From: an uncultured delta proteobacterium
GTDB lineage: Bacteria > Myxococcota > Myxococcia > SLRQ01
Length of the DNA: 64,000 nt
Assembly (NCBI GenBank): GCA_963727485.1
Contig: CAVSGM010000001.1
Span: forward strand, 1-64,000
Direction of reading: 5' to 3'
Shown: one piece after another, positions 8,127 through 61,300 of the stretch
Layout of the letters: the number at the start of each line of letters is the position of its first letter
Position numbering within the stretch: the stretch's first letter is position 1
The notes under the pieces: generated by a model
Databases searched by the model: none
Seen by the model: only the letters and a program-made list of their open reading frames with translations
What the model was told of the DNA's origin: nothing
Translations under genes and position numbers: made by a program

Positions 8127-10076
<1,950 letters not shown>

Positions 10077-13408: not shown

Positions 13409-14296
13409 ATGACCCGCCGTGACGACGCCCGGACCCTCCAGGCCACCCGCCTCGCCCGCCTCGCCCGCCGCGACGAGCGGGCCCTCGACGCGGCCCTGTC
13501 CACCGGCCCCCTCGCCGACGCCGCCCGCCACGGCGGCGACAGCTGGCGCCTCCTCCAGGGCGACAGCCTCGAGCTCCTCGGGGCGCTGCCGCCGCGCACC
13601 GTCGATCTCGTCTTCGCCGACCCGCCCTACAACCTCTCCAACGGCGGCACCACCTGCCAGGCCGGGCGCCGGGTGAAGGTGGACAAGGGCGCCTGGGACG
13701 TGAGCCACGGCGTCGACGCCGACCAGGCCTTCCACCGCGCCTGGCTCGCCGAGGTCCAGCGGGTGCTCAAGCCGTCCGGGACCGTGTGGGTCAGCGGCAC
13801 CCAGCACGTGATCTTCCAGCTCGGCTTCGCCATGCAGTCGCTGGGCTTCCACCTCTTGAACACCGTCACCTGGTTCAAGCCCAACGCGGCGCCGAACCTC
13901 GCCTGCCGCTTCTTCACCCACTCCAGCGAGCTGCTCATCTGGGCGGCGCCGGCCCGGATGAAGCCGCTCCCCCACCACTTCGCCTACCAGGAGATGAAGG
14001 CGGAGAACGGGGGCAAGCAGATGCGCGACCTGTGGACCCTGCCCACCCCGGGCAAGCGCGAGAAGCTCCACGGCAAGCACCCGACCCAGAAGCCGCTGGC
14101 GCTCCTCGACCGGGTGATCCGGGCGTCGACCCACGAGCGGGCCCTGGTGGTGGACCCGTTCAACGGGTCGGGGACCACCGGGGTCGCCGCGGTGGCCCTC
14201 GGCCGGCGCTACCTGGGCATCGAGCGCGAGGCCGGGTACCTCGAGCTCTCGGCCCGCCGCCTCGAGGCGCTGGACGCCCACGCGGCGACGGGCTGA
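13409..14296 (+). CDS. N4/N6 DNA methyltransferase, beta class, DpnA-like
   Basis: FADPPYNLSNGG...VDKGAWD, KPNAAPNL, HPTQKP, DPFNGSGTT; motif order DPPY before FxGxG. Confidence 0.92.
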   Translation: MTRRDDARTLQATRLARLARRDERALDAALSTGPLADAARHGGDSWRLLQGDSLELLGALPPRTVDLVFADPPYNLSNGGTTCQAGRRVKVDKGAWDVSHGVDADQAFHRAWLAEVQRVLKPSGTVWVSGTQHVIFQLGFAMQSLGFHLLNTVTWFKPNAAPNLACRFFTHSSELLIWAAPARMKPLPHHFAYQEMKAENGGKQMRDLWTLPTPGKREKLHGKHPTQKPLALLDRVIRASTHERALVVDPFNGSGTTGVAAVALGRRYLGIEREAGYLELSARRLEALDAHAATG

Positions 14297-14388
14297 CGCG
14301 GCCTACCGGCTCCGGTCGCCGACCATCACCCGGCCGCAGGTCTCGTGGGCCTGGCCGAGGTAGGGGTTGTGGACGCCGTGGCCGGCCT
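14287..14388 (+). repeat. 102-bp direct repeat, left copy (att-like)
   Basis: Matches 19698-19799 except A14296 vs G19707; offset 5411 bp. Confidence 0.95.
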
Positions 14389-14571
14389 GGAGGCGCCGTT
14401 GGCGGCCGACGTCGTACGCCCCCGAAATTCCTGCGCGTTGCCGAGGCGTCAGCATCCGCGGTACGTAAGGAAATGCCTGTCTACCCGTAGGTGACACCCT
14501 GTCAGGTGGTGACCACCGGCCGCCGAACCCCCGGGTGGATGGGCAACGCATGGCAGACCACGGGAGGGTCG

Positions 14572-17455
14572 ATGAAGACGGCCGAGGTTCTGGACAGCTA
14601 CGCCGACGGGGATTCGGATCAGCTCGCGGCGGACAAGGTCGATGAGGTCAGCAACCTGCGGCTCCCTCGGCCCGTGCTGATCCATGAGATCGCCGAAGCC
14701 CTGGGGTCGCAGAGCTACGTCGCTGCCGCCCTCGCCCCGATTCGCCCTCCGGCCTACGCATGCATCAAGCTGCTCCTCGACGCTCCCGACCACCAGCTGC
14801 CGGCCGCTGGTTTCCGGGAGGCCGTGGTCGCGACCACCGACGGCATGACGGACCGTGTTGCTGCCGGGGAGGGCCTGGTGGGCGGCAAGGAGTACGGCCT
14901 CTACCGGACCATGCTTCGGGCGGCCTACGAGGATGATGGCCAGATTGACAGAAGCGAGGCCTTGCTCCTCGAAGCCCTTCGTCGAGAGCTGGGGATCTGG
15001 ACGCGAGAGCACCTGCTCCTGGAGCACCATCCGGAAGTTCGTCCACACTGGGACGACGGCCGGGCCTTCGAGCGGGCCCGGAACCAGCTGCTCACCAGCG
15101 GGCTGGTGCTGACCCTGGGCGACGACTACGTGATGCCCGACGAGGTTGCCACCCAGGTTCGTCAGGCCTGGGGCATCGCGCTCGAGGACGCTGCCTACGT
15201 GCGGCTCCTGGACCGCCTCACGGTCAACCAGCTTCGCGCCGTTCTCCAGGCAACGGGGCTGCCCTCGAGCGGGAGCAAGGAAGAGCGGATCGCCCGAATC
15301 GTCGCTGGCTTCGTGCCACCAGCCGAGGTCCTCGACGTCCTCCATATCAACGACGTCAAGAGCCTGTGTCGCGACCTCGGCCTTGCGGTGAGCGCCGCGA
15401 AGGCCGACCTCATCGACGGCGTGGTCGAGGCCTTCGAGATCGGTCGCGACCTCCAGGAGGCGTCCGGCGAGCCGGCCGATGCCCCGCTGGTAAAGGAGGA
15501 GAAGCAGCTCGAACCCGTCGCCTTCCGTCGTCTCTTCGACCAGCTGACCGTCGACCAGCTCTACGACCTCCTGACCACCGACCGGCTGAAGCGGGCCGGC
15601 TCAAAGGCCGAGCGAATCGAGCGGCTCCTGGGTGGCCCCCTCGGCGAGACCGCCCTTCTGGGCGAGCTGCGGCGCTCCGACCTGGTGAAGACCTGCCGGC
15701 GCCTGGGCGTCCCCGTCTCCGGCGTCAAGGCCGAGTTGGTCGAGCGGCTGATCGAGTGGGCTCGCGAGCCGCTGCGAACTGACGAGGGCGAAGTGGCCTT
15801 GTCGCCGCGGCCCGATTCCGCCGAAGACGGCAGACCTCGCCGAGCCTGCACCCCCCAGTCCCCCCACCGACGTTTCGCCACCGCCCAGCCCTCCGCCGGC
15901 CGGCATGCACGACATCCAGACCGACTTTCCGGATTTGCCGAGAGATGAGCAGATCGTGCTGTCCCTGCTCCGTGAGGCTCGGTCGTTGACCGAACGCGAC
16001 GTGAAGCGGGCGGCGGAGCGCCATCGCCTGGGCTGGTTCCTGATCAAGGCGCACATGGCCGACCTCGTGGCGCGACTGCGGCAGCAGGATCGGGGTCCGG
16101 TGCGGATCCGCAGCGCCGGCGCCACCAACATCTACGAGTGGGTGGACGACGCCCCGAGCAAGCCGGAGCGGGACCAGAAGAGCTCGGCGCGTGATCTCAT
16201 TGACGCCCTGCGCCACGGTGTCGTGCCGGATCGACACCTGGGGCAGCTCATCGTTGGGCAGCAAGCGGCTCGGACCTACCTCCAGAAGCAGCTGTCGGAG
16301 ACGCCGTCAGGGCGCTCGGAGTTCAAGTTCATCCGTGGGCCCTACGGAAGTGGCAAGACCTTTCTGTGCTCCTGGCTTCGGGAGCAAGCGTTCCAACTCG
16401 AGATGGCGGTGGCCACGGTGCGGATTGGCCCCGACCAGCCAATCTCCGATTTGCCGATCTTCTTCTCCGGGTTGGTCAGCGGCCTGCGGACTCCCGAGAA
16501 GCGAGACGCCTCGGCACTTCCGGACGTGCTCGAGTCGTGGCTCCTCGAGGTCCAGCGCAAGGCCGCGAAGCTGGAGGGTCTCGATCCCCTCGAATCCCGT
16601 GGAGAGAGGTCGCCTCACGAGCCTGGTCGAGGCCCGGATCTCCGAAGAGCTGGCTCGGCTCGGAGGCATGGACCCCGGGTTCGCGCCGGCCCTGGGGGCC
16701 TTTTACCGGGCGCGGGTCGATGGTGACCTCGAGACCGCCAGCGTCGCCCTCGGCTGGCTTCGCGGTAGCCGCTCCCTTCCGTCGGCGGCGTTGAAGGCAA
16801 TCGGGGTGAGGGGATACCTCGAGAGCGATCAGGTGCTGCCGCGCCTCAAGGCCCTTCTCGAGGTCATCCGTCGCGGGCGCCTGAACGGCCTGTTGATCCT
16901 AGTGGACGAGCTCGAGCTGATCCGGCGCATGCCCCATGCCCGACAGCGGGAGGAGGCCTACGAGACCCTGCGCCTTCTCATCGACGAGACCGGAGAGAAC
17001 AACCTGCCGGGGTGCCTGCTGGTGTTCACCGGGACCGACGCCCTCTTCGACGACGATCGCTATGGGATGGGGAGCTACGAGGCCCTCCTCAACCGGGTGT
17101 CTCCGCCGGCGCTTCCGGGCGGACTGGTGAGCATGCGCCAGCCGGTCATTCGCCTGGAGCCCCTCGATCGTGACAAGCTCCTCGACGTCGCCCGGAGCGT
17201 CACGCGACTCCACGGCGACGCCTACGGCTGGCCTTCTGGCGAGCGGGTGGGCGACCCTGCCCTGGAGCGGTTGGTGGACTGTGGACCTCCTTCGGAGAGG
17301 GTCAGATCAGCCGGCTGCCAAGGCCGATCCTCCGGGAGCTCGTTCACGTGCTCGATCTCTGCGAGGAGAACCCCGGGATCACCGCCGAGAGCTGCATGCG
17401 CGCACCCTCCGCCGATCTGGACCTGGCGGCGGCCGCAGACATCCTGGACGGGTAG
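14572..17455 (+). CDS. TerB-like + four SAP-like motifs + BrxD-like (DUF2791) P-loop ATPase, probable single fusion with about 3 frameshifts
   Basis: GGGAGG RBS before ATG 14572. DDGQIDRSEALLLEALRRELGI; four SAP-like motifs; IDALRHGVVP, Walker A GPYGSGKT, WLRG, Walker B LLILVDELE, LVFTGT, SYEAL. Ends TAG 17453-17455. Joined from ORFs 14491-15948, 15905-16726 and 16191-17783. Confidence 0.78.
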
Positions 17456-19663
17456 ATGGCGCCCGCCAACGATCTCTCGGACGCCTCCATCCTGGCATTC
17501 AGACCTGGGTGAAGGAGCAGAGCTGGCCGGACCTCACCGCTGTTCAGAAAGCAGCGATGCCCGTGATCCTCGCCGGGCGGCACTGCCTGGTCGAGGCGCC
17601 GACGGCCGGTGGCAAGACCGAGGCAGTGCTCTTCCCGGCGCTGACCCGGGTCGCCGAAGCGCAGGGTGCCGGGGTTCGGATCCTCTACCTGGCGCCGCTT
17701 CGGGCATTGCTCAACGACCTCGAGATCCGGGCTCGGGTCTACGCTTCCGCCTGCGGCTTGCACGCGTTCAAGTGGCACGGTGACGTGAGCCAGCGCTCCA
17801 AGCTGGACAGCTTCCATATGCCGCCGGAGGTGTTGCTGACCACCCCGGAGTCAGTGGAGGCGATCCTCCTGAGGAAGGCGGGGTGGGAGCGCTTCTTCCA
17901 GGGCCTTCAGATCATCGTGATCGACGAGGCCCACAACTTCGCCTTCGGCGAGCGCGGCCATCACCTGTTGGCGCTTCTCGAGCGCCTGGAGAGCCGGATC
18001 GGTCATCGCAGCGAGCGAATCGCGATCACGGCCACGATCGGGAACCCCGTGGCGATGGCACGCTGGCTGGTGCCCAAGGGCACCGAGCCGGCGGAGCGGA
18101 TCTCCGTGTCGGGAGCGACCCCACGACGAGACTTCAGCCTCCGGCTCTTTGACGAGGCGGGCGATAGCCCCGATGGCGACACCGGGCCCAGTGCCACGGT
18201 TCGTCGGTTTGCCTTCTTGGCGAAGGAGCTCCGAGGACGGAGATCGATCGTCTTCGTGAGGTCGAGAGCCGGCGCCGAGGACCTGGCGAAGGTGTTCCTG
18301 AGGGCAGGCAGGGGGCCAAGCGCCCTGCGGGTCCGGACCCATCACTCGGCGGTGAGTCGCTACTTCCGCGAAGAGGCGGAGGCGCTGATCAAGACCAAGT
18401 CGGAGACGGGGCTGGATGCCATCCGTAAGCACCTCGACCCTCGAGCTGGGCATCGACATCGGGGCCCTGGATTGGTCGTCCAGCTCGATGCCCTGTCGAG
18501 TCCAGCGGCCTTTCTGCAGCGGATCGGCCGGACTGGCCGGCGCCCCGGCATGCCTCAACGCTTCCGGGGGCTATGTCTCGACGTGGAGGCCTTGCTCCAG
18601 CTGGCCGCAACGGTCAGCCTCGGCCTCGAGGGGAGGTCGGAGGCGCTCCGATTCCGGTCCAGGGCGTTCCACATCCTGGCGCACCAGACCATCTGCCTCG
18701 CCTGCAGGAGAACGGTGTCACCCTGGACGGGGCTTGGCGAGTCCTCAAGGGGCGGGCTCCTTCTCTGGGATTCCGCCAGGCCGAATACGAAGTCCTGATC
18801 CATCACATGCTGCAGGAGGACTACCTGCGATGGGACGGCCCCATTCTCCTCGTGGGTGAGCAGACCGAGAAGCGGTTCCTGGGGGCTGGCTGGCGCCGGC
18901 TCTTTGCCGTCTTCGACTCGGCACCGCTCTATGAGGTCTTCCATGGGGAGGCCCAGGTCGGCACCCTCGATGCCGGCTTCGTGGAGGGCTTGGAGGTTCC
19001 GTTCAACTTCATCCTCGCCGGCCGGCCCTGGACGGCCACGTCGGTCGATCCGAAGTCGAGAGCGGTGAGGGCGAAGCCCACTCGCAACGCAGAGCCGCCG
19101 CGCTGGGACAGTTACGGCGGGCTGGATGTGCCGCCAGAGACGGCCCGCCGGGTGGGAGAGATTCTGGGTGGCGCGGTTGCGGTGCCCGACCTGGGGTCCG
19201 ACGCGGAGGCCGCGGTGCGACAGGCGATCGACGACGCCCTGCCGTGGCGCCCCGGCCAGATCGTGGTGGCGCGGCGCGGTGCTTCGGTGCTGCTTCGCAC
19301 CTTCGCTGGCGACAAGATCAATCGAACCCTCGCCAAACTCCTGGAGGCCGAGGGGCTTATCCGGGTGAGGGCGAACTACAGGGAGCTTCGCGTCGACCAT
19401 GCCGGCAACGACCTCGACCAGGTCGTGCCCATGCTCGAAGACGTGCGACGGCGTCTGCGAGAGGCACCAGCGCCCGCGACACGGGTTTCTCAGGCGCTCG
19501 CGCTCACGGTGCGACGCTTCCCTTCTCGCTGTTCGCACAGTGTCTACCGGACGACCTTTTCGTTGCCGCCCTCGCGGACGAACGGCTGGACGCAGAGGGC
19601 GCGGCGGCGCTGCTCGAGGCCGCGACGGTGGAGATTCTGGTCGACGACGCGGCGGCTCCCTGA
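17456..19663 (+). CDS. Lhr-like/BrxHI-like DEAH-box SF2 helicase (about 5 frameshifts)
   Basis: ATG directly after the ATPase stop. LTAVQ, APTAGGKTEA, APLRALLND, TTPES, IDEAH, TAT, HHSAVS, STSTLELGIDIG, QRIGRTGRR, and C-terminal FILAGRPW. Confidence 0.85.
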
Positions 19664-19697: not shown

Positions 19698-19799
19698 GAC
19701 GGGCTGGCGCGGCCTACCGGCTCCGGTCGCCGACCATCACCCGGCCGCAGGTCTCGTGGGCCTGGCCGAGGTAGGGGTTGTGGACGCCGTGGCCGGCCT
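19698..19799 (+). repeat. 102-bp direct repeat, right copy (contains the 3' end of the DUF3347-like gene)
   Basis: Matches 14287-14388 with one mismatch. Confidence 0.95.
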
Positions 19800-20220
19800 C
19801 GACCCAGGTCGCCTTGACCATGGGGCAGTAGAGGACCCGGGCCCCCTTGGGGTGCGCGGTGATCACCCAGACCACCAGGTGCTTGCCCAGGGCCAGGAAC
19901 GCGGCGCGGGCGGCCTTCAGGTCCTTGGCGGCGGCGAGGGCCCGGGCGTCCTCGGCGATGTGCCCGGGGAGGCTGCCGTAGCGGGCGGCGTGGCCGGCGG
20001 CGGTGCGCACCGGCTCCAGCTTGGCGCTGGCGGCGACGATGGCCAGGGCCGCGGGCGCGACGCCGTCGAGACGGTCGTGGGCCAGGGCGTGCTCCACCAC
20101 CAGGTACTGGGCCAGGATCGGCGCCATCTGCCGGTCGAAGACCGGGCGGGTCGGCGCCGCCAGGGCGGTGGTGGCGAGGACGGCGGCGAGGGCTGGGATC
20201 ACCAGGCGTACGGGCTTCAT
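19714..20220 (-). CDS. Exported DUF3347-like (putative metal-binding) protein
   Basis: Signal peptide; YLVVEHALAHD, ARAAFLALG, YCPMVKATW...NPYLG...TCG. Confidence 0.75.
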   Translation of the reverse strand: MKPVRLVIPALAAVLATTALAAPTRPVFDRQMAPILAQYLVVEHALAHDRLDGVAPAALAIVAASAKLEPVRTAAGHAARYGSLPGHIAEDARALAAAKDLKAARAAFLALGKHLVVWVITAHPKGARVLYCPMVKATWVEAGHGVHNPYLGQAHETCGRVMVGDRSR

Positions 20221-20263
20221 CACGGTCACTCCCTTCGGATGTTCGAGCCAACCGACCAGAGGG

Positions 20264-20279
20264 AGCATCAATCGTGCCT
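20264..20279 (-). promoter_or_regulatory. sigma54 -24/-12 promoter of the DUF3347-like gene
   Basis: - strand reads AGGCACGATTGATGCT with correct GG/GC spacing, upstream of a GAAGGGAG RBS. Confidence 0.6.
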
Positions 20280-20459
20280 AAGGGGGTGCCTTCAGGACCC
20301 CGGGGCCTCCGCGCGTCGCCGAGCCACCGCCCGGGAGGCGCGTAACGAACCGGGATGCCTATTGTTTCTTGGAGCGCCGGCCTCGCCGAGCGGTCCGTCT
20401 CCGCGAACCGGTGCCGTCGTCCGGTTTGGTCGCGCCCGCGCAGGTGTCGCGTGACGCGC

Positions 20460-20534
20460 GTGACCTGCGCGTCCCCCGCGCGTGACCTGCGCCCCCCGCG
20501 TGTGACCTGCGCCCCCCGCGCGCGTGACCTGCGC
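20460..20534 (+). repeat. Intergenic tandem repeat, 4 x GTGACCTGCGC
   Basis: Copies start at 20460, 20482, 20502 and 20524. Confidence 0.85.
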
Positions 20535-20558
20535 CAGGTGCGCGCAGGCTGCGCCGCC

Positions 20559-22631
20559 TCACTTCACCTCGAGGACGTGGACGCCGTCCCAGTCCTCGGG
20601 CGGGGGCGCGGCGGCGAAGGCGCGGCTGCGCGCGGCGAGGACCCGGGCGGGCCCGTCCCCGGGCACCGTCTCCAGGCAGGCGTCGAAGGCGGCGGCGGCG
20701 GCGGCGAAGCGCCGGGCGAGGTAGGCCTCGCGCCCCTCGGCCCAGCGCGCGAGCAGGGTCTGCCAGGCGGGCCCCAGGCTCCCGGCCCGGCCCAGGACCT
20801 CGTAGACCCGCACCCCCTGCAGCTTGCCCTTGACCCGGAGCAGGTCCAGCTCCCGGAAGGCGAAGCGCTCGGCGCACCCGGCGAGGCTGTCCTCGGTGAC
20901 CATCAGCCGGCTGCCGTAGACCTTGTTGGCCCCCTCGAGGCGCGAGGCGAGGTTCACCGCGTCGCCGATGACCGTGTAGTCCTGGGCCTGGCTGGAGCCG
21001 ATGTTCCCCACCACCACCTCGCCGGTGTTCACCCCGATGCGGCAGTCCACCGGCGGCTTCCCCGCGGCGACCCACTCGGCCCGGAGCCGGTCCACCGCCG
21101 CCAGGTGGTCGAGGGCGGCCAGGATCGCCCGGGCCCGGTGGTCGGCCTGGGGCAGGGGCGCCCCGAAGAAGCACATCACCGCGTCGCCGGCGAACTTGTC
21201 GAGGGTCCCCCCGGCGGCGACGATGGGCGCGGTCACCGCGTCGAAGTAGGTGTTGAGCAGGGAGACCACCTCGGCGGCGCTGCGCCCCTCGGAGAGCGAG
21301 GTGAAGCCCACCAGGTCGCTGAAGAGGATGGTGAGCTCGCGGGTCTCGCCCCCGAGGCCGAGCTTGTCCGGGTGGGCGAGGAGCTCCTCGACCACCGCCG
21401 GGGCCATGTAGCGCTCGAAGGTGGCCTTGATGGTGTCCCGCTGGCGCAGGCCCTCGGTCATCTCGTTGAAGGCGGCGCCGAGGCGGGCGAACTCGTCGCC
21501 GCCGGTGACCGCCACGTGGGTCTCGAGGTCCCCGGCGGCGACCCGCCTGGCCCCGGCCTCCAGCGCCACCAGGGGCGCCGAGAGGCGCCGGGCCAGCAGC
21601 GCCGCGGCGATGAGGCTGGCGAGGAAGGCGAAGAGCGCGATGGCGGCCATGGCCAGGCGCAGGCGCCGGCGGAAGCCCCCGAGCTCCCGGTCCAGGCTCT
21701 TGAGGAGCACCGCCCGCCCGATGACCACCCCGGCCTCCTTGAGGGGGGCGACCTCGGCGAGCCAGGGGGCGCCGCCGAAGGGCACCTCCTGCGGCGCGTT
21801 GCGGGCGTGGGCGGCGAGGCGGCCGGCGACCCGGCGGACCTCGGGGAGGCGCAAGGCGAGGTCCGGGGAGAGATCGAAGGCGTCGCCCTCGTGGTCGGCC
21901 ACCGCCACCAGGGCCCCGCTGGCCAGCTCGAGCTGGGGGCGGATCCGGGCGAGCGGCTCGCCGACGATCATGGCGCCGAGGACCTGCCCCTGGGAGGTCA
22001 CCGGCTCGGCGAGGACCAGGAAGAGCCCGGTGGCGCCCTGGGTCGGGACCACGTGGTCGGCGCGGAGCCGGGTCCCCGCCGCCGGCCACAGGGCCACCGC
22101 CTTGGCGCCGGCGAGGGCCTGGCGCACCACCGGGAGCCCCGAGAGGTCGGCGCCGTAGGCCCTCCGGTCGGCCCGGGAGAAGAGGAGCACCCCCTGGTGA
22201 TCGAGGACCGCGAGCACCGGGTAGTCGTGGAAGAGCGGGAGGTCGACGCTGGCGAAGACGTCGTGGGTGTCCCGCACCGCGTGGCCGTCGTCGCCGCCGC
22301 CGAGGCCCAGGGCGTCGTCGGAGACCCGGGTGAGCGAGAGCTGGCTTCTGAAGACCTGGTCGGAGACCGTGGCCTCCACCACCTGGTCGAAGGCCCGGAC
22401 CCGGGCGGCGAGGATGTCGTGGAAGGCCGACAGCGCCCCGTGGAAGTCCCGGGTCACCCGGTCCCGGGCGGCGGTCTCGGCGGCCCGGTTGGCGGCGACC
22501 AGCGCCACCACCAGCACCAGCGCCGCCACCAGGACGAAGAGGAGGCGCAGCCGTGCCCCGAAGCTCATCCCCCGCCGGGGGGCGCCCCGCCGGCGGCCCG
22601 CATCCGCGGGGGCATCGGTGGCGGCGCGCAT
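20559..22631 (-). CDS. Membrane class III adenylate/guanylate cyclase (sensor domain, HAMP, cyclase, TPR-like tail)
   Basis: Two TMs, DEFARLGAAFNEM HAMP, LFSDLVGFT, DKFAGDAVM, RIGVNTG, DYTVIGDAVNLASRLEG, VKGK. Alternative start 22568. Confidence 0.93.
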   Translation of the reverse strand: MRAATDAPADAGRRRGAPRRGMSFGARLRLLFVLVAALVLVVALVAANRAAETAARDRVTRDFHGALSAFHDILAARVRAFDQVVEATVSDQVFRSQLSLTRVSDDALGLGGGDDGHAVRDTHDVFASVDLPLFHDYPVLAVLDHQGVLLFSRADRRAYGADLSGLPVVRQALAGAKAVALWPAAGTRLRADHVVPTQGATGLFLVLAEPVTSQGQVLGAMIVGEPLARIRPQLELASGALVAVADHEGDAFDLSPDLALRLPEVRRVAGRLAAHARNAPQEVPFGGAPWLAEVAPLKEAGVVIGRAVLLKSLDRELGGFRRRLRLAMAAIALFAFLASLIAAALLARRLSAPLVALEAGARRVAAGDLETHVAVTGGDEFARLGAAFNEMTEGLRQRDTIKATFERYMAPAVVEELLAHPDKLGLGGETRELTILFSDLVGFTSLSEGRSAAEVVSLLNTYFDAVTAPIVAAGGTLDKFAGDAVMCFFGAPLPQADHRARAILAALDHLAAVDRLRAEWVAAGKPPVDCRIGVNTGEVVVGNIGSSQAQDYTVIGDAVNLASRLEGANKVYGSRLMVTEDSLAGCAERFAFRELDLLRVKGKLQGVRVYEVLGRAGSLGPAWQTLLARWAEGREAYLARRFAAAAAAFDACLETVPGDGPARVLAARSRAFAAAPPPEDWDGVHVLEVK

Positions 22632-22636
22632 GGGCT

Positions 22637-23310
22637 GAGTAGTGCGGGTGCTTGCGGTACGGCTCCCCGTACTTGTCCATGTGGGGCTTGACCTGCTTGG
22701 TGAGCGCCAGGGAGAGCGTGAGCTTCACCGTCCCCCCGGCTTTCACCGTGACCTTCTGGCGGATGGGGTCGGCCAGCGGCTGCCACACGTAGAGGGTCCA
22801 GGTCCCGGCGGGGACGTCGTCGATGGCGAAGTGGCCGGTGTGGTCGGTGACCGCGAAGGCGCGGTTGGGGAGCACCAGGATGGTCCCGGCCATCTGGGGG
22901 TGGATGTTGCAGTAGACGTTCACCAGCCCGGTGCGGTCGAAGTGGATCGTGGGCCGGGCGCCGGGGTGGGCGAGCCCGAGGTCGAAGCGCCGCGCCTGGG
23001 AGACGCTGAAGACGTTGTGGCGCTCCTTGTCGAGGTTGGGGAAGGCCACGGTCTGGCCCCGGGTGATGGGGAGCACCGCCGGCTCGAAGGCCTTGTGCTT
23101 CTGCATCATCACCGCGACCTTGTCCGGCGCGGCCTGGGAGAAGCCCACCAGGTAGACCACCGCCCCGCCGTTGCCCTGCGGGCGCGGGTGCCCGCCCCGG
23201 GTGAGGGTGACCACGCCCTCGACCCGTCCCCCGCTCCCGGCCCGGGCCGCGGCGGCGGGGACGAAGAGGGCCAGGCAGACGAGGACGCCGAGGCGGGGGC
23301 GCGCCCGCAT
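22637..23310 (-). CDS. Exported cupredoxin-like protein with carboxypeptidase-regulatory-like domain (stop codon not seen; 3' end approximate)
   Basis: Signal peptide; FPNLD..HNVFS and YCNIHPQM type-1 copper ligand motifs; TDHTGHFAIDDVPAGTWTL. Confidence 0.8.
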
Positions 23311-24078
23311 CAGATGGCCACCGCGACGATGAGCCGGGGCATCACCACCGGCGTGGTCGGGGTGAGGCCGAAGAGGACCCCGAAGGTCATCCACACCCGC
23401 CCCCGGGAGAAGGCGAGGTCGGGGCCGGCGAAGAAGTGCTTGAGGCCGGTGACCGCGCTGCCCACGGAGATTCTGGTGGAAGTACTCGGCCCCGAGGCGC
23501 CACTCGTCGGAGAGGCGCTGGGTGTAGCCGATCGAGAGGTTCTGGAGGACCATGGTCTTGGGGCCGAAGCCCACGTCGGCGAGGATCCCGGCGTCGACGG
23601 TGAGGTGGCTGCCGTCGAGGTCGCCGAAGGAGACCACCACGTCGGCGCCGGCGAAGGGGTACTGGTGTCCCCGGCCGGCGTTGAGCGGATGGGCGAAGTT
23701 CTGCTGGTAGATGAGGCGGACCAGGGGCCGGACGAAGGCCTGGTCGTCGTTGGGATCGTAGAGGCGGATCCGGGCCTCGGCGGCGAAGTCGGTCATCTGG
23801 GTGCCGGCGGGGGTGACCACCGCCTCCCAGGGGAAGGCCAGCTCCAGGTGCTGGGTGAGGCCGTAGACCGGCGCCAGCCACAGCCACCCCGGCGAGGGGG
23901 TGCCGGGCTTGGGGGCGTGGACCGGGGCCCAGAGCCACTCCTCGAGCTCGAAGTCGCCCTGGTCGACGGTCTGCGTGTCCCAGACCCAGGTGAAGGCCCG
24001 GCGTCCGGCGTGGGCGGGGTGGGCCCAGGCGAGGCCCGAGCAGAGGACGAGGAGGGCGAGGGCGGTGCGTGTGCGCAT
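23310..24078 (-). CDS. Exported protein, probable outer-membrane beta-barrel (frameshift about 23470)
   Basis: Signal peptide (AHA), RAFTWVWDT...ELEEW, amphipathic strands, FAGPDLAFSRGRVW C-terminus in the alternate frame. Confidence 0.6.
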
Positions 24079-24198
24079 GAGCGTTCCCGGCAGGCGGTCC
24101 ATGGTCCCCGCGGGGTCGGGCCGGTGTCAATCGGCCCCGGCTGGCGGCCCCCGCGGCTACGTCTATACTCCTTCGCTGCATCCCCTCTGGAGGTCACC

Positions 24199-39686: not shown

Positions 39687-41516
39687 TGGACCTCTTCGGC
39701 CGCGGTCTCCTCCCCCTGGTGGTCTTCCTGCCGCTCGCCGGCGCGGTGATCCTGGCCTTCCTCCCCAAGGAGGAGAGCGGCCAGCACCGGACGGTGGCGT
39801 TCATCGTCTCCCTGCTGACCTTCGCCGCCAGCGTCCTCATCCTCTTCCGCTTCGTCCCCGGGGTCGCCGGCTTCCAGCGCAGCCTCACCGTGGACGTCCC
39901 CTGGATCCCCTCGGCGAACATCCACTTCCACATGGCCCTCGACGGCATCAGCCTCTTCCTGGTGATGCTGACGACCTTCCTCTCGCCGATCGTCATCCTC
40001 TCGGCGTTCAAGGCGGTCAACGACCGGACCAAGGAGTTCATGATCGCCCTGCTCCTCCTGGAGACGGGGATGCTGGGCGCCTTCGTCTCGGTCGATCTCG
40101 ATCCTCTTCTACGTCTTCTGGGAGGCGATGCTCATCCCGATGTACCTCATCATCGGGATCTGGGGCGGGCCCCGGCGCATCTACAGCGCCCTCAAGTTCT
40201 TCCTCTACACCATGGTCGGCTCGCTCTTGATGCTGCTGGCCATCCTCTACCTCTACTTCGCCCACGGCAGCTTCGACTTCCAGACCCTGCTCGCCGCCCA
40301 CCTCTCGCTCACCGAGCAGCGCTGGCTGTTCTGGGCCTTCGTGGTCGCGTTTGCGGTGAAGGTGCCCATGGTGCCGGTCCACACCTGGCTCCCCGACGCC
40401 CACGTCGAGGCGCCCACCGCCGGGTCGGTGATCCTCGCCGGGGTGCTCCTGAAGATGGGGAGCTACGGGCTGATGCGCTTCGCCTTCCCCCTCTTCCCGC
40501 AGGCCGCGGCGATCTACGCCCCGGTCCTGGGGACCCTCGGGGTCCTGGGCATCGTCTACGGGGCGATGATGGCCATCGCCCAGAAGGACGTGAAGAAGCT
40601 CATCGCCTACTCCTCGGTCTCGCACATGGGCTTCGTGGTCCTCGGCCTGTGCGCCCTGACCCCCGAGGCGGGCACCGGCGCGGTCTACCAGATGCTCAAC
40701 CACGGCGTCTCCTCCGGGGCGCTCTTCCTCCTGGTGGGCGTGGTCTACGAGCGGCGCCACACCCGGCTGATGTCCGACTACGGCGGGATCGCCCGGGCGA
40801 TGCCGGTGTTCGCGGCCTTCTTCCTCCTGGTGGCGCTCTCGTCTGCGGGCCTCCCGGGGACCAACGGCTTCGTCGGCGAGTTCCTGATCCTGGTGGGCAG
40901 CTTCTCCGCCGCCCCCATCTGGATCCGCTGGGCCACCAGCATCGGCGCCACCGGCGTCATCCTCGGCGCCGTCTACCTCCTGTGGATGTACCGCCGGGTG
41001 TTCTACGGGCCGCTGACCAACAGCGAGAACAAGAAGCTCAAGGACCTCTCGATTCGCGAGTGGTTCGTGCTGGCGCCGCTGGCGGTGCTCATCATCGTCA
41101 TGGGCGTCTACCCCAAGCCCTTCCTCGACCGCATCGGGCCCTCGGTGGACGCCTACGTGGGCCGGGTGGTGGCCTATGCCGCGCCCACCCGCCCCCAGGG
41201 CTCCGAGGTCGCCGCCGCCTCCGGCCCCGTGGCCCGGGCGCTCGGCGCCCCCGCCGGCGCCCTGGCCCTCATCGGCCCGGGACAGAAGGCGGGCGCCGCC
41301 GGGAACCCCGAGCTGATGCGGGCCCTGGCGAGGCGTGACGCCTGGCTCCGGGGTCCCCACCCGATGCCCGCCAACCGGCCCGAGTTCCACATCATCCGGC
41401 CGATGCCGGGGCGGCAGCCCCGGCAGATCGACCCCCAGCGCAAGCAACAAATCCTCGAGCAGCTCCGTCGGCGCCTACGGCTCCAAGTGCGCCCGGAGCG
41501 GGAGGGGCAGAAGTGA
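39686..41516 (+). CDS. nuoM: NADH-quinone oxidoreductase subunit M (frameshift about 40100)
   Basis: [51 protein letters not shown]. Confidence 0.95.
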
Positions 41517-49772: not shown

Positions 49773-51497
49773 ATGAACGGCCTCTGTCAGCAGTGCCAGG
49801 TCTACTACCCGATGCCCGAGGACTTCGCTCGCGGCGTCCCCTACGCGTGCCCTCAGTGCCAGACCCTCCTGGTGCCCTATGCGGAGGCCGCGTCGCCGGT
49901 GGCGGTCCAGCCCTCCGGGCCCCCCGCCGGGACCCCGCCCCCCGACGCCGGGGGCTACGAGATCTCCGCGCCGATGGACGCCGACGCCCCTGACGACATC
50001 ACCCTGGTGGGCCGGGCTCCCGACGGCTTTCGCCAGGGCCCGGTGGCGCCTCCGCCGGAGGATCCCGGGGCCCGGGTGCGGGTCGTCTGGTTCCATCCCC
50101 ACCCGTCGCCGGAGGTCGCCGCCGCCCGGGCCGAGCTCGCCGCCGAGGAGCCCAAGACCCCGGCCGGGCCGGTCTCGCCCCTGCCCCCCGTCGGCGCCGG
50201 CGTGCCCGATGACCCCTGGCTCTCCGGGGAGGCGACCCCGCCCTCGCCGGGTCCGACCCCCGCCGCGCCCGAGGCCGGGAAGCCGACCACCTTCGTGCTC
50301 CGCGGCGCCGGCGAAGGCGTCGCCCGGGAGGAGCTCCCCCTCGACCTGCCCAAGCGATCGGCGGCGCCCCCGGCGGCCGCCGAGCCCTCGCCGCGGCGGA
50401 CCCAGGAGCCGGTGCCCAGGTTCCGTCAGATCACCACCGCCGCCACCCCGGTGCGCCGGCGCGGGGCCGCGGCGATCTGGGCGGTGCTGGGTTTCCTGCT
50501 CCTCGGCGGGGCCGGCGCCGCCTGGTACTTCACCGGCCCCGGCGCCGAGACCTGGCAGCGCCTCGCCGGGAGCGGGGCCCACCCGGCCGCCGCCCGCGAG
50601 CGCCCGGCGTCGGACCCCGCCGCGGCGGACGACGCCCCCGGCGCCGCCACCTCCGGCACCGCCGCGCCCGAGGGGACCCCGGCCACCGGGGGGGCCGCGC
50701 CGGCCGGGGGCGCGCCCGGCCACCCGGCCGCCGCCCAGCCCGCCCACGGCAAGCCGGCGCCGACGGAGCCCGCCGCCCGGACGGCTCCGGCGCCCAAGGG
50801 CGGGGCCACACCCGCCAAGGCCAAGGCCACGGTGAGGCACGCGACCAAGGCCGCCGCCAGGCCCAAGGCCGCCGCCCGGCCCAAGGCCGCCGCCCGGCCC
50901 AAGGCCGCCGCCAGGCCCAAGGCCGCCGCCAGGCCCAAGGCCGCCGCCAGGCCCAAGGCCGCCGCCAGGCCCAAGGCCGCCGCCAGGCCCGAGGCCGCCG
51001 CCAGGCCCAAGGCCGCCGCCAGGCCCAAGGCCGCCGCCAGGCCCAAGGCCGCCGCCAGGCCCAAGGCCGCCGCCAGGCCCAAGGCCGCCGCCAGGCCCAA
51101 GGCCGCCGCCAGGCCCAAGGCCGCCGCCAGGCCCGAGGCCGCCGCCAGGCCCAAGGCCGCCGCCAGGCCCAAGGCCGCCGCCAGGCCCAAGCCGAAGGCT
51201 GCCGCGGACCCGGCGCCCGGCGGCGACGCGCTCTCCGAGGTCCGCACCGGCAACCTCCTCTTCGGCCAGGGCAGGATTGACGCGGCCATCTCCGCCTACC
51301 GGGCGGCGCTGAAGCTCGACCCCAACAGCGGCCTGGCGCACCGGGGCCTCGGGGTCGCCTACGCCAAGCTCGGCCGAGCGGCCGCCGCGGCCAAGGAGTA
51401 CCAGCGGTATCTCGACCTGGATCCGAACGCCCCCGACGCGCCCCAGGTGCGGCGCATCGTCAAGGCGTACTACGACCAGACCGGGAAGACGCCCTAG
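49773..51497 (+). CDS. Membrane protein: N-terminal Cys4 zinc ribbon, Pro-rich linker, TM, AAARPK repeats, C-terminal TPR
   Basis: CQQC...CPQC; TM IWAVLGFLLLGGAGAAWYF; TPR AISAYRAALKLDP...AHRGLGVAY. Confidence 0.8.
   Translation: MNGLCQQCQVYYPMPEDFARGVPYACPQCQTLLVPYAEAASPVAVQPSGPPAGTPPPDAGGYEISAPMDADAPDDITLVGRAPDGFRQGPVAPPPEDPGARVRVVWFHPHPSPEVAAARAELAAEEPKTPAGPVSPLPPVGAGVPDDPWLSGEATPPSPGPTPAAPEAGKPTTFVLRGAGEGVAREELPLDLPKRSAAPPAAAEPSPRRTQEPVPRFRQITTAATPVRRRGAAAIWAVLGFLLLGGAGAAWYFTGPGAETWQRLAGSGAHPAAARERPASDPAAADDAPGAATSGTAAPEGTPATGGAAPAGGAPGHPAAAQPAHGKPAPTEPAARTAPAPKGGATPAKAKATVRHATKAAARPKAAARPKAAARPKAAARPKAAARPKAAARPKAAARPKAAARPEAAARPKAAARPKAAARPKAAARPKAAARPKAAARPKAAARPKAAARPEAAARPKAAARPKAAARPKPKAAADPAPGGDALSEVRTGNLLFGQGRIDAAISAYRAALKLDPNSGLAHRGLGVAYAKLGRAAAAAKEYQRYLDLDPNAPDAPQVRRIVKAYYDQTGKTP
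50850..51191 (+). repeat. Coding tandem repeat, 19 x 18 bp (AAARPK/E)
   Basis: GCCGCCGCCAGGCCCAAG units; K-to-E variants at units 8 and 16. Confidence 0.95.
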
Positions 51498-58322: not shown

Positions 58323-61300
58323 ATGCTCGTTTCCTGCCCTTCGTGTCAGGCGAAGTACAACATCGATGACGCGCGCATCCCCGCCTCGGGGCTGAAGCTC
58401 AAGTGCCCCAAGTGCACCACGGTGTTTCCGGTGCAGGGGGGTGCGGGCGGCGGCGGTGATGTGCCCCTTCCCGGTGCCGGTGCCCCAGCGGGTGGCGGCG
58501 CCCCGGGTGCCGTGCCCCTCCCGGGCAACGCGCCCCCGGCCGGCCCGCCTCCGGGGGCCGCCGCGCCCCCCTCCGGTGCCGTGCCCCTCCCGGGCAACGC
58601 GCCCCCCGCCGGCCCGCCTCCGGGGGCCGCCGCGCCCCCGTCCGGCGGCGTGCCCCTCCCGGGTGGCGCGCCCCCCGCCGGCCCGCCTCCGGGGGCCGCC
58701 GCGCCCCCGTCCGGCGGCGTGCCCCTCCCGGGTGGCGCGCCCCCCGCCGGCCCGCCTCCGGGGGCCGCCGCGCCGCCGTCCTCTGGCGTGCCCCTCCCGG
58801 GTGGCGCGCCCCCCGCCGGCCCGCCTCCAGGGGCCGCCGCGCCGCCGTCCTCTGGCGTGCCCCTCCCGGGTGGCGCGCCCCCCGCCGGCCCGCCTCCAGG
58901 GGCCGCCGCGCCGCCGTCCTCTGGCGTGCCCCTCCCGGGTGGCGCGCCCCCCGCCGGCCCGCCTCCGGGGGCCGCCGCGCCGCCGTCCTCTGGCGTGCCC
59001 CTCCCGGGCGGCGCGCCACCCGCCGGCCCGCCTCCGGGGGCCGCCGCGCCGCCGTTCGGCGGCGTGCCCCTCCCGGGCGCCCCCGCCGCCGGCGGCGCCG
59101 ACTACGGCAACGTCGACCTCGGCGACGCCCCGGACAGCGGCGCCACCCGGGTCTACGCCGCGCCCCCGTCCATGCCCGAGTTCGGGAACGTCGACCTCGG
59201 CGCCGACGATCCGGCGCCGGCCCCGGACGGTGGCGCCGGCTTCGATCCCTTCTCGGGCGTCGATCTCCCCGACCCCGGCGCCGCGCCCCCGGCCGCCCCG
59301 CCAGTCGCCGCGCCCCCGGTGCCTCCGCCGGTCGCCGCCCCGCTCCCCCCGCAGGCGCCGGGCTCCGGCTTCGCCTTCGGGGACGACGGCACGGACGACC
59401 TCTCGTTCGATCCCGCCGCGGCCCCGACGCCCTCGGCGCCGCCCCCGGGCGACGACCTCTCCTTCGATCCCACCGCGGCCCCGGCCCCGGACGGCGGCGA
59501 CCTCGAGCTCGACCTCGGCGACGCCCCGGCCCCGGCCCCCGCGGCCCCCGCGGGCGGGGGCGGCGACGACCTGGAGATCCTCGACTTCATCGACAACGAG
59601 TACCAGGCCGCCAAGGACTCGGGCGCCAAGGTCCGCGAGGCCGGCCCCGAGAAGTACCGGGTCCGCCGGAAGAGCGGGAAGACCTTCGGCCCCTTCGAGC
59701 CGGAGGTGGTGGTCACCATGCTCAAGGAGGGCCAGCTCCTCGGCAACGAGGAGGTGTCCACCGACGGCAACACCTGGAAGCCCATCGGCTCGGTGCCCCA
59801 GTTCGCCGAGGCCATCCAGGCCCTGATGGAGGCCCCGTCGCTGGGCCACGACGCCCCGATGATGGGGGCCCTGCCTGAGGGCGCCGACGACCTCGACGAC
59901 ACCGACACCGTGGCCCCCAAGGGCAAGGGCTACGGGGTCTACGGGATGTCGGCGGCGGTGAAGAGCACCACCGCCGCCCGGACCGCCCCGAGCAAGGTCT
60001 TCCTGGCCAAGCTCAAGAAGCGCTGGCCCCTGGTGACCGCCGGCGTGCTCCTCCTGGGGATCCTCGGCTTCGGCATCTACCTCGGCTTCACGCCCTACGG
60101 CTACTTCGCGTACAAGCTGGTGTTCACCCCCGGCGCCGGGGGGCACAACAAGCCCACGAGGGAGCTGCTCTCCGACGCCCGCAAGGGCATCGCCGACGAC
60201 ACCTTCGCCGGGTACACCCAGGCCCTCGAGAGCGCCAAGGCGGCGCTGGCGGCCAACGGCGACGACGTCGAGGCCCAGAGCCTCTACTGCCAGGCGGCCT
60301 TCTACCTCCAGCGCCTCTACGAGGGCCACAGCGTCCAGGTGAAGCGGGCGCTCGGCTACATGCACGACCTCTCGGTCACCAGCAAGGACTACCCGCCCTA
60401 CCTCAAGGCGAAGATGGACGAGGCCCTCCTCGAGGGCAACGAGGCCGCCGCCCGGCCGGCCCTGGTGGCCCTGGTGAACAAGCACCCCAAGGACCTCGAG
60501 GCCCTCTACCTCCTCGGGGCCTCGTACTTCCACGCCCGGGACGCCAAGCACGCCACCGCCTGGATCGACAAGATCCTGGTCGTCGATCCCACGAACGCCA
60601 AGGCCTTCCACGCCGAGGCGTTCATCCACACCATGCTCAAGACGCCCGAGGCCCGGGACACGGCCATCGCCTACTTCCAGAAGGCCCTGGACGCGAACCC
60701 CCAGCACCTCTCCTCGGCCCTCGAGCTCGCCCACCTCTACCTGGTGAACGACGACCCGAACCTGGCCAAGGGCGAGGCCGCGTTGGATCGGGTGGCCGGG
60801 GACGCCTTCAAGACCCTCTCGCGGTCGGAGCAGGCCCGCGCCGACTACCTGCGCGGGGTCCTCGACAGCCTCAAGGGCCAGGTGGCCAAGGCCGCCAAGG
60901 TCTTCGACCAGGCGGTCACCCTCGATCCCAAGTCGGCGTTTGGCCGCACCGCCTACGGCGAGTTCCTCCTCAAGCGTCACCAGTACGAGAGCGCCGCCAA
61001 CCAGCTCGCCGCGGCGGTGAAGCTCGCGCCGGGGAGCATCCGGGTCGCCGGCCTCCACGTCGAGGCGCTCATCCGCTCCGGCCGGGCCCTCGACGCCACC
61101 CAGGCCCTCAACGCCCTCAAGGGGCGGGCGCCGGCCAACGCCCAGGTGATCTTCCTCGAGGGCCTCCTCGCCCACAGCAAGGGCGACGACGACGTGGCCC
61201 AGGGCCTCTACGCCAAGGCGATGAAGGCCGACCCCCACTACTACCGGGCCGCCCTGGCGCTCGGGAACCTCTTCCTCGAGGAGCGGCGGGTCAAGGAGGC

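Follow-up and report, generated by a model that had tools for sequence, protein, structure and literature searches.

A 64,000-nt stretch of an uncultured delta proteobacterium of the Myxococcota (contig CAVSGM010000001.1, positions 1–64,000; hereafter the window) carries a two-gene unit that pairs a fusion of a SAP-motif array and a BrxD/SngB-type AAA+ ATPase (gene 1) with an Lhr-type helicase (gene 2). On our best reading, the unit belongs to neither bacteriophage exclusion (BREX) nor Shango, and is a sister of Shango that has two genes, one of them a fusion, and as yet no name. We consider it, with a probability of about 0.68, to act against phages or plasmids as a Shango-like defence in which predicted DNA binding by the SAP motifs would let the ATPase load the helicase; a defence role of the pair as such is probable. 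BREX-free, nuclease-free defence by this pair is already known from Shango, and the novelty here lies in the array of SAP motifs at the front and in its being fused to the ATPase.

Domain architecture of the two genes

The first-pass annotation had described gene 1 as a TerB/SAP–BrxD ATPase fusion, and the SAP–ATPase part of that description holds. The SAP family PF02037 matches gene 1 with an E-value of 5e-20 and 71 bits against a cut-off of 23.9, and SAP and PF10923 occur together in all 96 longer homologues (96/96, in a search restricted to proteins of 750–2140 aa). The SAP repeats match the structures of Ku70, SIZ1, Tho1, and DEK (E 2e-4 to 0.06), with Ku70 the best match, and the tandem SAP pairs recall DEK. 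The linker between the SAP array and the winged-helix-like domain is variable, and the Walker A (GPYGSGKT, 16337–16360) and Walker B (LILVDELE) motifs of the ATPase are both intact. The NCBIfam BrxD model gives fragment matches of 96 and 123 bits, under its cut-off of 350. When the search was set to the size of just the front half of gene 1, it returned 12 proteins, mostly on short contigs. The possibility that gene 1 represents two genes, a SAP open reading frame (ORF) at 14572–15948 and an ATPase ORF from 15905, was ruled out by the homologues and the reads. Two fusion-family members of ~1215 aa (P0091 and P0094) carry an extra C-terminal extension of ~240 aa that matches no Pfam family.

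The TerB part of the description reduces to a half-TerB motif. Gene 1 has no direct Pfam match to TerB, whereas a family profile over residues ~100–151 picks up repeats assigned by Pfam to the second half of TerB (E down to 6e-11); aligned to SngA, the profile falls on the TerB motif (P 0.013; the lowest P among 11 controls was 0.064), indicating half a domain at most. Pfam TerB_N, TerB, and TerB_C were all found in the five Shango controls (5/5), and none of them in the window or the homologue fusions. Profiles of the N-terminal and winged-helix-like domains found no PDB match, and the Atlas yielded just an unnamed 418-aa SAP cluster. The winged-helix-like domain was also tried as a TerB_C homologue (P 0.012) and rejected as unsupported, one of 13 controls having scored better.

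Gene 2 retains the helicase motifs APTAGGKT, DEAH, TAT, and QRIGRTGR. Its best models are BrxHI and then SngC, and the PADLOC check proposed with the first-pass annotation returned BrxD and BrxHI as the best matches of the pair. The best PDB matches of gene 2 are Lhr (E 1e-84; M. smegmatis 5V9X is among the Lhr-core structures), which places it among the Lhr-type superfamily 2 (SF2) helicases, with scores under the full-length Lhr equivalog cut-offs. No nuclease domain was found in gene 2.

A third lineage beside BREX and Shango

In an ATPase tree of 98 sequences, from which ten short or duplicate loci were left out, the 49 fusion sequences form one clade with a support of 100, apart from BREX BrxD (99) and Shango SngB (100) and with no resolved order among the three. 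Reduced trees without the long-branch sequences agree, and the helicase tree recovers the same groups. As the clades are separate in both the ATPase and helicase trees, the fusion family is a third lineage beside BREX and Shango, and not a BREX remnant. The nearest tree neighbour of the window ATPase is from Myxococcota. At one fusion locus (L002), the ATPase scores 263 bits with BrxD versus 161 with SngB, and the helicase 543 with BrxHI versus 403 with SngC. The dN/dS ratio (nonsynonymous to synonymous substitution rates) is 0.01–0.16 where measurable, several comparisons being saturated, and the fusion family is under purifying selection.

A scan of species genomes found 75 loci, 55 of them in the fusion family and spread over about a dozen bacterial phyla (taken from record titles, with binning errors possible in metagenome-assembled genomes, MAGs). 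The SAP half is present in 50/55 fusion loci, and the other five are cut by contig ends. The helicase lies directly downstream on the same strand in 52/55 loci, while two end at a contig edge and one (L026) is inverted. Together with the separate clade and the purifying selection, this linkage bears out the first-pass view of a stand-alone two-gene unit and not a deletion remnant. Cultured strains of Chitinophaga, Flavihumibacter, Marinimicrobium, and Natronospirillum carry the pair intact. Its distribution is patchy: 10/103 genomes of one genus carry the unit, and the N-terminal domain occurs in 12/401 genomes of the host phylum and 0/4 of the host family. Among 15 Chitinophagaceae loci, three flanking proteins are shared. 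No third gene family, methylase, or common partner recurs beside the unit, and no relative was found in phage, plasmid, or viral contig collections.

Several loci depart from the common layout. The inverted helicase gene of L026 (13009–15237) is intact and lies in a chromosome-level assembly. L155 (7400–12218) and L075 (6475–8913) have a tandem pair of DUF2791-type ATPase genes, after which L155 has the helicase. A DEDDh exonuclease, a possible optional effector, is encoded directly 3′ of the helicase in L013 (12739–13998), L022 (15074–16360), and L014 (5573–6406), and carries BRCT in the two loci scanned by Pfam.

A split form is represented by seven proteins of ~520 aa that terminate exactly at the winged-helix-like domain. 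At the locus with context (L182), genes for an ATPase, a helicase, and Hachiman come after that of the ~520-aa protein; the helicase branches as sister of the fused clade (99), and the placement of the ATPase has a support of only 46. The SAP module is also found elsewhere, joined to nucleases and in restriction-like operons. In P0135, P0137, P0218, P0243, and L181 (782–2329), the N-terminal domain/SAP module and a FokI-like PD-(D/E)xK nuclease form one protein, making these candidate one-gene restriction systems, and P0137 also retains the winged-helix-like tail. In addition, bare BrxD + BrxHI pairs nested in the BREX clade were seen in L061–L063, L065, and L067 (Vulcanimicrobiota-type) and L064 (Burkholderiales), with no BREX core or sensor gene in view and often beside asparagine-synthase and beta-helix genes. 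They show the dyad in BREX-free use for a second time, independently of the fusion family.

Genomic context of the unit

All ORFs of ≥140 aa at 50 loci were searched, with a cut-off of 1e-25 for the BREX core and SngA models. None of the 435 neighbour ORFs matched, and the controls L056, L057, and L071 did; the pair recurs without BREX genes. As first annotated, the island that holds the unit contains no pglX, pglZ, brxC, or nuclease gene detectable by domain and model searches. Searches of the window genome (93% complete) gave no PglZ, type-2 BrxC, or TerB_N. Across 49 host genomes, many of them incomplete MAGs, BREX-sized PglZ occurs in four, type-2 BrxC in one, and TerB_N in two. PglZ matches as such were seen in 33/49, mostly (29) to ORFs of 441–558 aa, which we take to be the size of Bacteroidota PorX. 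The PglZ search missed the PglZ of G026, a genome with BrxC, and the genome-wide absences are therefore soft. Defence genes are enriched near the unit: PADLOC matched 44/435 neighbour ORFs compared to 6/260 background ORFs (p 6e-5; 260 of the 268 ORFs called in 20 arbitrary regions of 16 genomes). The excess is genuine, though moderate, and includes doubtful matches.

The island and its assembly state

The unit lies between two 105-nt direct repeats that are 98% identical (Table 1). The first-pass annotation had described two abutting genes (TAG 17453–17455, ATG 17456) as the sole cargo of a repeat-bounded island, and our coordinates and content agree: the 5,306 nt between the repeats hold only these genes, preceded by 180 nt and followed by 34 nt. 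Each repeat consists of the 89-nt 3′ end of the DUF3347-like gene and 16 nt past its stop, reaching the stop of the convergent methyltransferase gene, and the genome contains no further full-length copy. The GC content of the island is 68% versus 72.5% for the remainder of the window, and the GC content at third codon positions (GC3) is 0.83–0.84 versus 0.99 in three flanking genes, which marks the island DNA as foreign. The island is a horizontally acquired two-gene unit. No recombinase or integrase gene lies within it, though flanking repeats exist, and scanning of the leader found neither a sigma-70 consensus nor a terminator. A short-read contig (14358–15114) covers the left repeat–island junction; none of the short-read pieces listed spans the right one. 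The empty insertion site was not found in relatives or, searched as an exact pattern, in metagenomes.

At L051, in an unrelated genome, the same gene pair is bracketed by a duplicated neighbour 3′ end (9687–9850 and 15153–15316). This repeat is 164 nt long and 91% identical, with gaps of 150/32 nt compared to 180/34 nt in the window, and without an integrase. Looser repeat brackets surround the unit at L002 and L003. Flanking repeats are not supported as a family-wide trait, being found at only 4/42 loci versus 3/60 control placements. Elsewhere in the window, tandem arrays of 18-nt and 69-nt units (50755–51299 and 58370–59197) are probably coding low-complexity repeats.

Table 1. Coordinates of the unit, its domains, and its flanks in the window
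Feature	Position	Strand	Description
Gene 1	14572–17455	+	960 aa after read-through: N-terminal domain, four SAP motifs, Pro-rich linker, winged-helix-like domain, BrxD/SngB-type AAA+ ATPase
Conserved N-terminal domain	14572–15171	+	Residues 1–200; matches no Pfam family
Half-TerB motif	14869–15024	+	Residues ~100–151; resembles second half of TerB
Four SAP motifs in two pairs	15202–15762	+	Residues 211–247, 254–290, 320–356, 361–397; DNA binding predicted
Winged-helix-like domain	15911–16177	+	Residues 447–535, ~90 aa, conserved; likeness by eye
DUF2791/BrxD-type AAA+ ATPase	16178–17410	+	Residues ~540–945; PF10923, PADLOC BrxD over SngB
Gene 2	17456–19663	+	736 aa after read-through of seven indels; Lhr-core-like SF2 helicase, BrxHI/SngC type
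Left direct repeat	14287–14391		105 nt: last 10 nt of methyltransferase gene and copy of last 89 nt of DUF3347-like gene
Right direct repeat	19698–19802		3′ end of intact DUF3347-like gene
Non-coding leader	14392–14571	+	180 nt; presumed promoter region
CcrM-like orphan N6/N4 DNA methyltransferase (flank, outside unit)	13409–14296	+	Host-like codon use; matched in 36/40 relatives
DUF3347-like gene (flank, outside unit)	19714–20271	−	3′ end duplicated by insertion

Both genes are interrupted in the assembly by ten single-base indels, three in gene 1 (15816, 16593, and 17278) and seven in gene 2. Near-identical short-read contigs from four runs, of which X1 and X2 belong to two studies, carry a compensating indel at every break; among those listed, eight are shared by X1 and X2, another is found in X1 and X3, and the last in X3 only. 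Read-through of all ten, the correction that the first-pass annotation had called for, gives exactly two ORFs of 960 aa and 736 aa with intact motifs, and the corrected proteins align end to end with intact homologues (51–61%). As near-identical contigs lack the breaks and read-through gives intact proteins, the ten frameshifts are most likely assembly errors. We infer a poorly polished stretch, perhaps since the island is present in just a fraction of the population. Outside the island, frameshifts were seen at 40100 (an NADH dehydrogenase-like gene) and at ~23390, the latter apparent from a chimeric ORF (20359–24102).

Proposed mechanism and alternatives

In the proposed mechanism, the four SAP motifs would, at slightly better than even odds, bind DNA without sequence specificity and prefer ends, forks, or branched intermediates, and the SAP array and winged helix would most likely recognise DNA by shape. 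DNA binding could plausibly, at somewhat lower odds, oligomerise the ORC/Cdc6-clade ATPase, whereupon the duplex would be opened and the 3′-to-5′ helicase loaded or switched on. More tentatively, the helicase might strip or collapse the replication forks or transcription bubbles of the invader, so that replication stalls without cleavage, with host growth possibly arrested. As no modifying enzyme travels with the unit, self/non-self discrimination would rest on DNA structure. An Lhr-type helicase translocates 3′ to 5′ (PMC5758891), while for archaeal Lhr, forks are the preferred substrate and stalled replication the site of action (PMC7437997). The first-pass suggestion that the ATPase loads the helicase was overstated: a loader role for BrxD–BrxHI had already been proposed in PMC12839542, from which the ORC/Cdc6-clade assignment also comes. 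A broader and speculative proposal is that the AAA+ ATPase/Lhr-helicase pair may be a self-sufficient anti-invader engine of three or more lineages, BREX type 2, Shango, and the fusion family among them, with the fusion family as the minimal form. The eukaryote-style SAP array would read DNA architecture (ends, forks, and junctions) and the ORC/Cdc6-like loader would set the helicase, halting phage replication without nuclease, methylase, or toxin; the array would then be a new interchangeable immune DNA sensor, also wired to nucleases.

The claim of a defence system is supported by a defence-like distribution and neighbours. The related pair with TerB-N/C proteins, which the first-pass annotation had mentioned, is the named and tested Shango (PMC10250203). 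Several points weigh against a defence role. No phenotype is known for the pair, neither protein has an obvious effector domain, Lhr proteins have been characterised as repair helicases (PMC7437997), and the winged-helix and TerB assignments are weak. The nearness to defence genes holds per ORF but not per locus, where 24/50 versus 6/20 have defence matches (p 0.19, not significant), and the ORFs of one operon are not independent in this statistic. Doubtful matches include UvrD (L005), a transposon ATPase (L004), and generic ATPases called PDC-S01; 26/50 loci are without a defence neighbour at the cut-off used, and the neighbours of the window unit itself are housekeeping genes.

A mobile module for DNA repair or replication stress, whose SAP array would locate breaks and stalled forks in the host chromosome and load the helicase there for remodelling, is a rather unlikely explanation. 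The fork preference of archaeal Lhr and its action at stalled replication (PMC7437997), the sensitivity of mycobacteria lacking lhr to crosslinkers (PMC9841417), the best SAP match being Ku70, and the DEDDh-BRCT exonuclease after the unit in L013, L014, and L022, with an Ada-type gene in L035, would all suit it, but repair genes rarely show such a distribution (10% of one genus, at unrelated sites), the two sister lineages both serve defence, and domain swapping has joined the SAP module to restriction-type nucleases. Less probable still is an accessory unwinding module dependent on a nuclease or system encoded elsewhere (BREX, restriction–modification, or RecBCD-like). The missing effector domain, the BREX type 2 pair thought to serve PglZ (PMC12839542), and the few host genomes with BREX-sized PglZ (4/49) or type-2 BrxC (1/49) point that way; against this, no common partner lies near the unit, BREX markers occur in at most 5/49 genomes and not in the window genome, and Shango works as three genes without a nuclease in a heterologous strain (PMC10250203).

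A selfish device promoting its own insertion with long target duplications is highly improbable: the tight bracketing at L051, with near-equal gaps, and the lack of an integrase in the island are consistent with it, whereas such repeats lie near the unit at only 4/42 loci versus 3/60 control placements, neither protein has a strand-transfer domain, and phage, plasmid, and viral collections hold no match. We also think it unlikely that this copy, as distinct from the family, is a decayed pseudogene or BREX leftover with real frameshifts. The density of ten indels in 5.1 kb is ~15x that of other genes, where four frame switches (three sites) were found in 30 kb of 30 genes (counted on 90/163 ORFs), and the strains behind the short-read contigs are related ones, not demonstrably this one. 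However, all ten are single-base, 21 of the 32 codons listed with substitutions are synonymous and none is a stop, unlike decay; the assembly also has frameshifts in core genes, and the fusion family is not nested in BREX.

Comparison with known systems

The two-gene, 5-kb form with sensor and ATPase in one chain is the simplest test bed for the proposed loader model. The TerB-half/SAP-array module, which is absent from the PADLOC models and was not met in the literature searched, would add to the list of swappable defence sensors, and defence-system finders would overlook the unit or label it a BREX fragment. In the literature searched, a SAP–DUF2791 fusion was not described, nor did the accessible parts of PMC11096173, 10.1101/2025.09.30.679545, 10.1101/2024.10.26.620412, and PMC13700489 contain anything on it; an older Ter-system survey, the supplement of PMC12839542, or subscription papers could list the architecture.

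The four SAP repeats resemble those of the eukaryotic proteins Ku70, SIZ1, Tho1, and DEK in sequence, but are bacterial, present in four copies, and fused to an AAA+ ATPase, with DNA binding predicted. Gene 2 shares its motifs with Lhr-core helicases (5V9X and archaeal Lhr; PMC5758891, PMC7437997), together with a weak WH_Lhr match. Unlike Lhr, it has ~735 aa and no long Lhr C-terminal domain, is always coupled to the ATPase fusion, and belongs to a patchy, not core, family.

With the BrxD–BrxHI dyad of BREX type 2, the unit shares the protein families, the tight linkage, and a helicase with an Lhr-type C-terminus. Of the features of BREX types 2 and 6, BrxD followed by BrxHI is present, whereas the core genes (PglW, PglX, BrxC, and PglZ for type 2) and nesting in the BrxD clade are absent. 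True BrxD scores ~470 bits on its model, compared to 263–268 for the fusion family, and in contrast to BrxD, described without DNA-binding or regulatory domains in PMC12839542, the fusion ATPase carries ~535 extra residues. There is no sign of methylation-based self marking, as no methylase recurs with the unit and the adjacent one is a widespread orphan.

Shango comprises SngA (TerB_N-TerB-TerB_C), the DUF2791 ATPase SngB, and the helicase SngC, and provides 10–100-fold protection (10.1101/2022.05.11.491447; PMC10250203); it defends as three genes in a heterologous strain without BREX core or nuclease (PMC10250203). The fusion family differs in having four SAP motifs in place of TerB_N/TerB_C, a sensor fused to the ATPase, and two genes instead of three, and it forms a separate clade in both trees; SngA and a place in the SngB/SngC clade are absent. 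What it has in common with Shango is the tandem of a homologous SngB-type ATPase and an SngC-type helicase, the lack of BREX core and nuclease genes, a sensor-like module placed ahead of the ATPase that contains the half-TerB motif, and the existence of a split three-gene form (L182).

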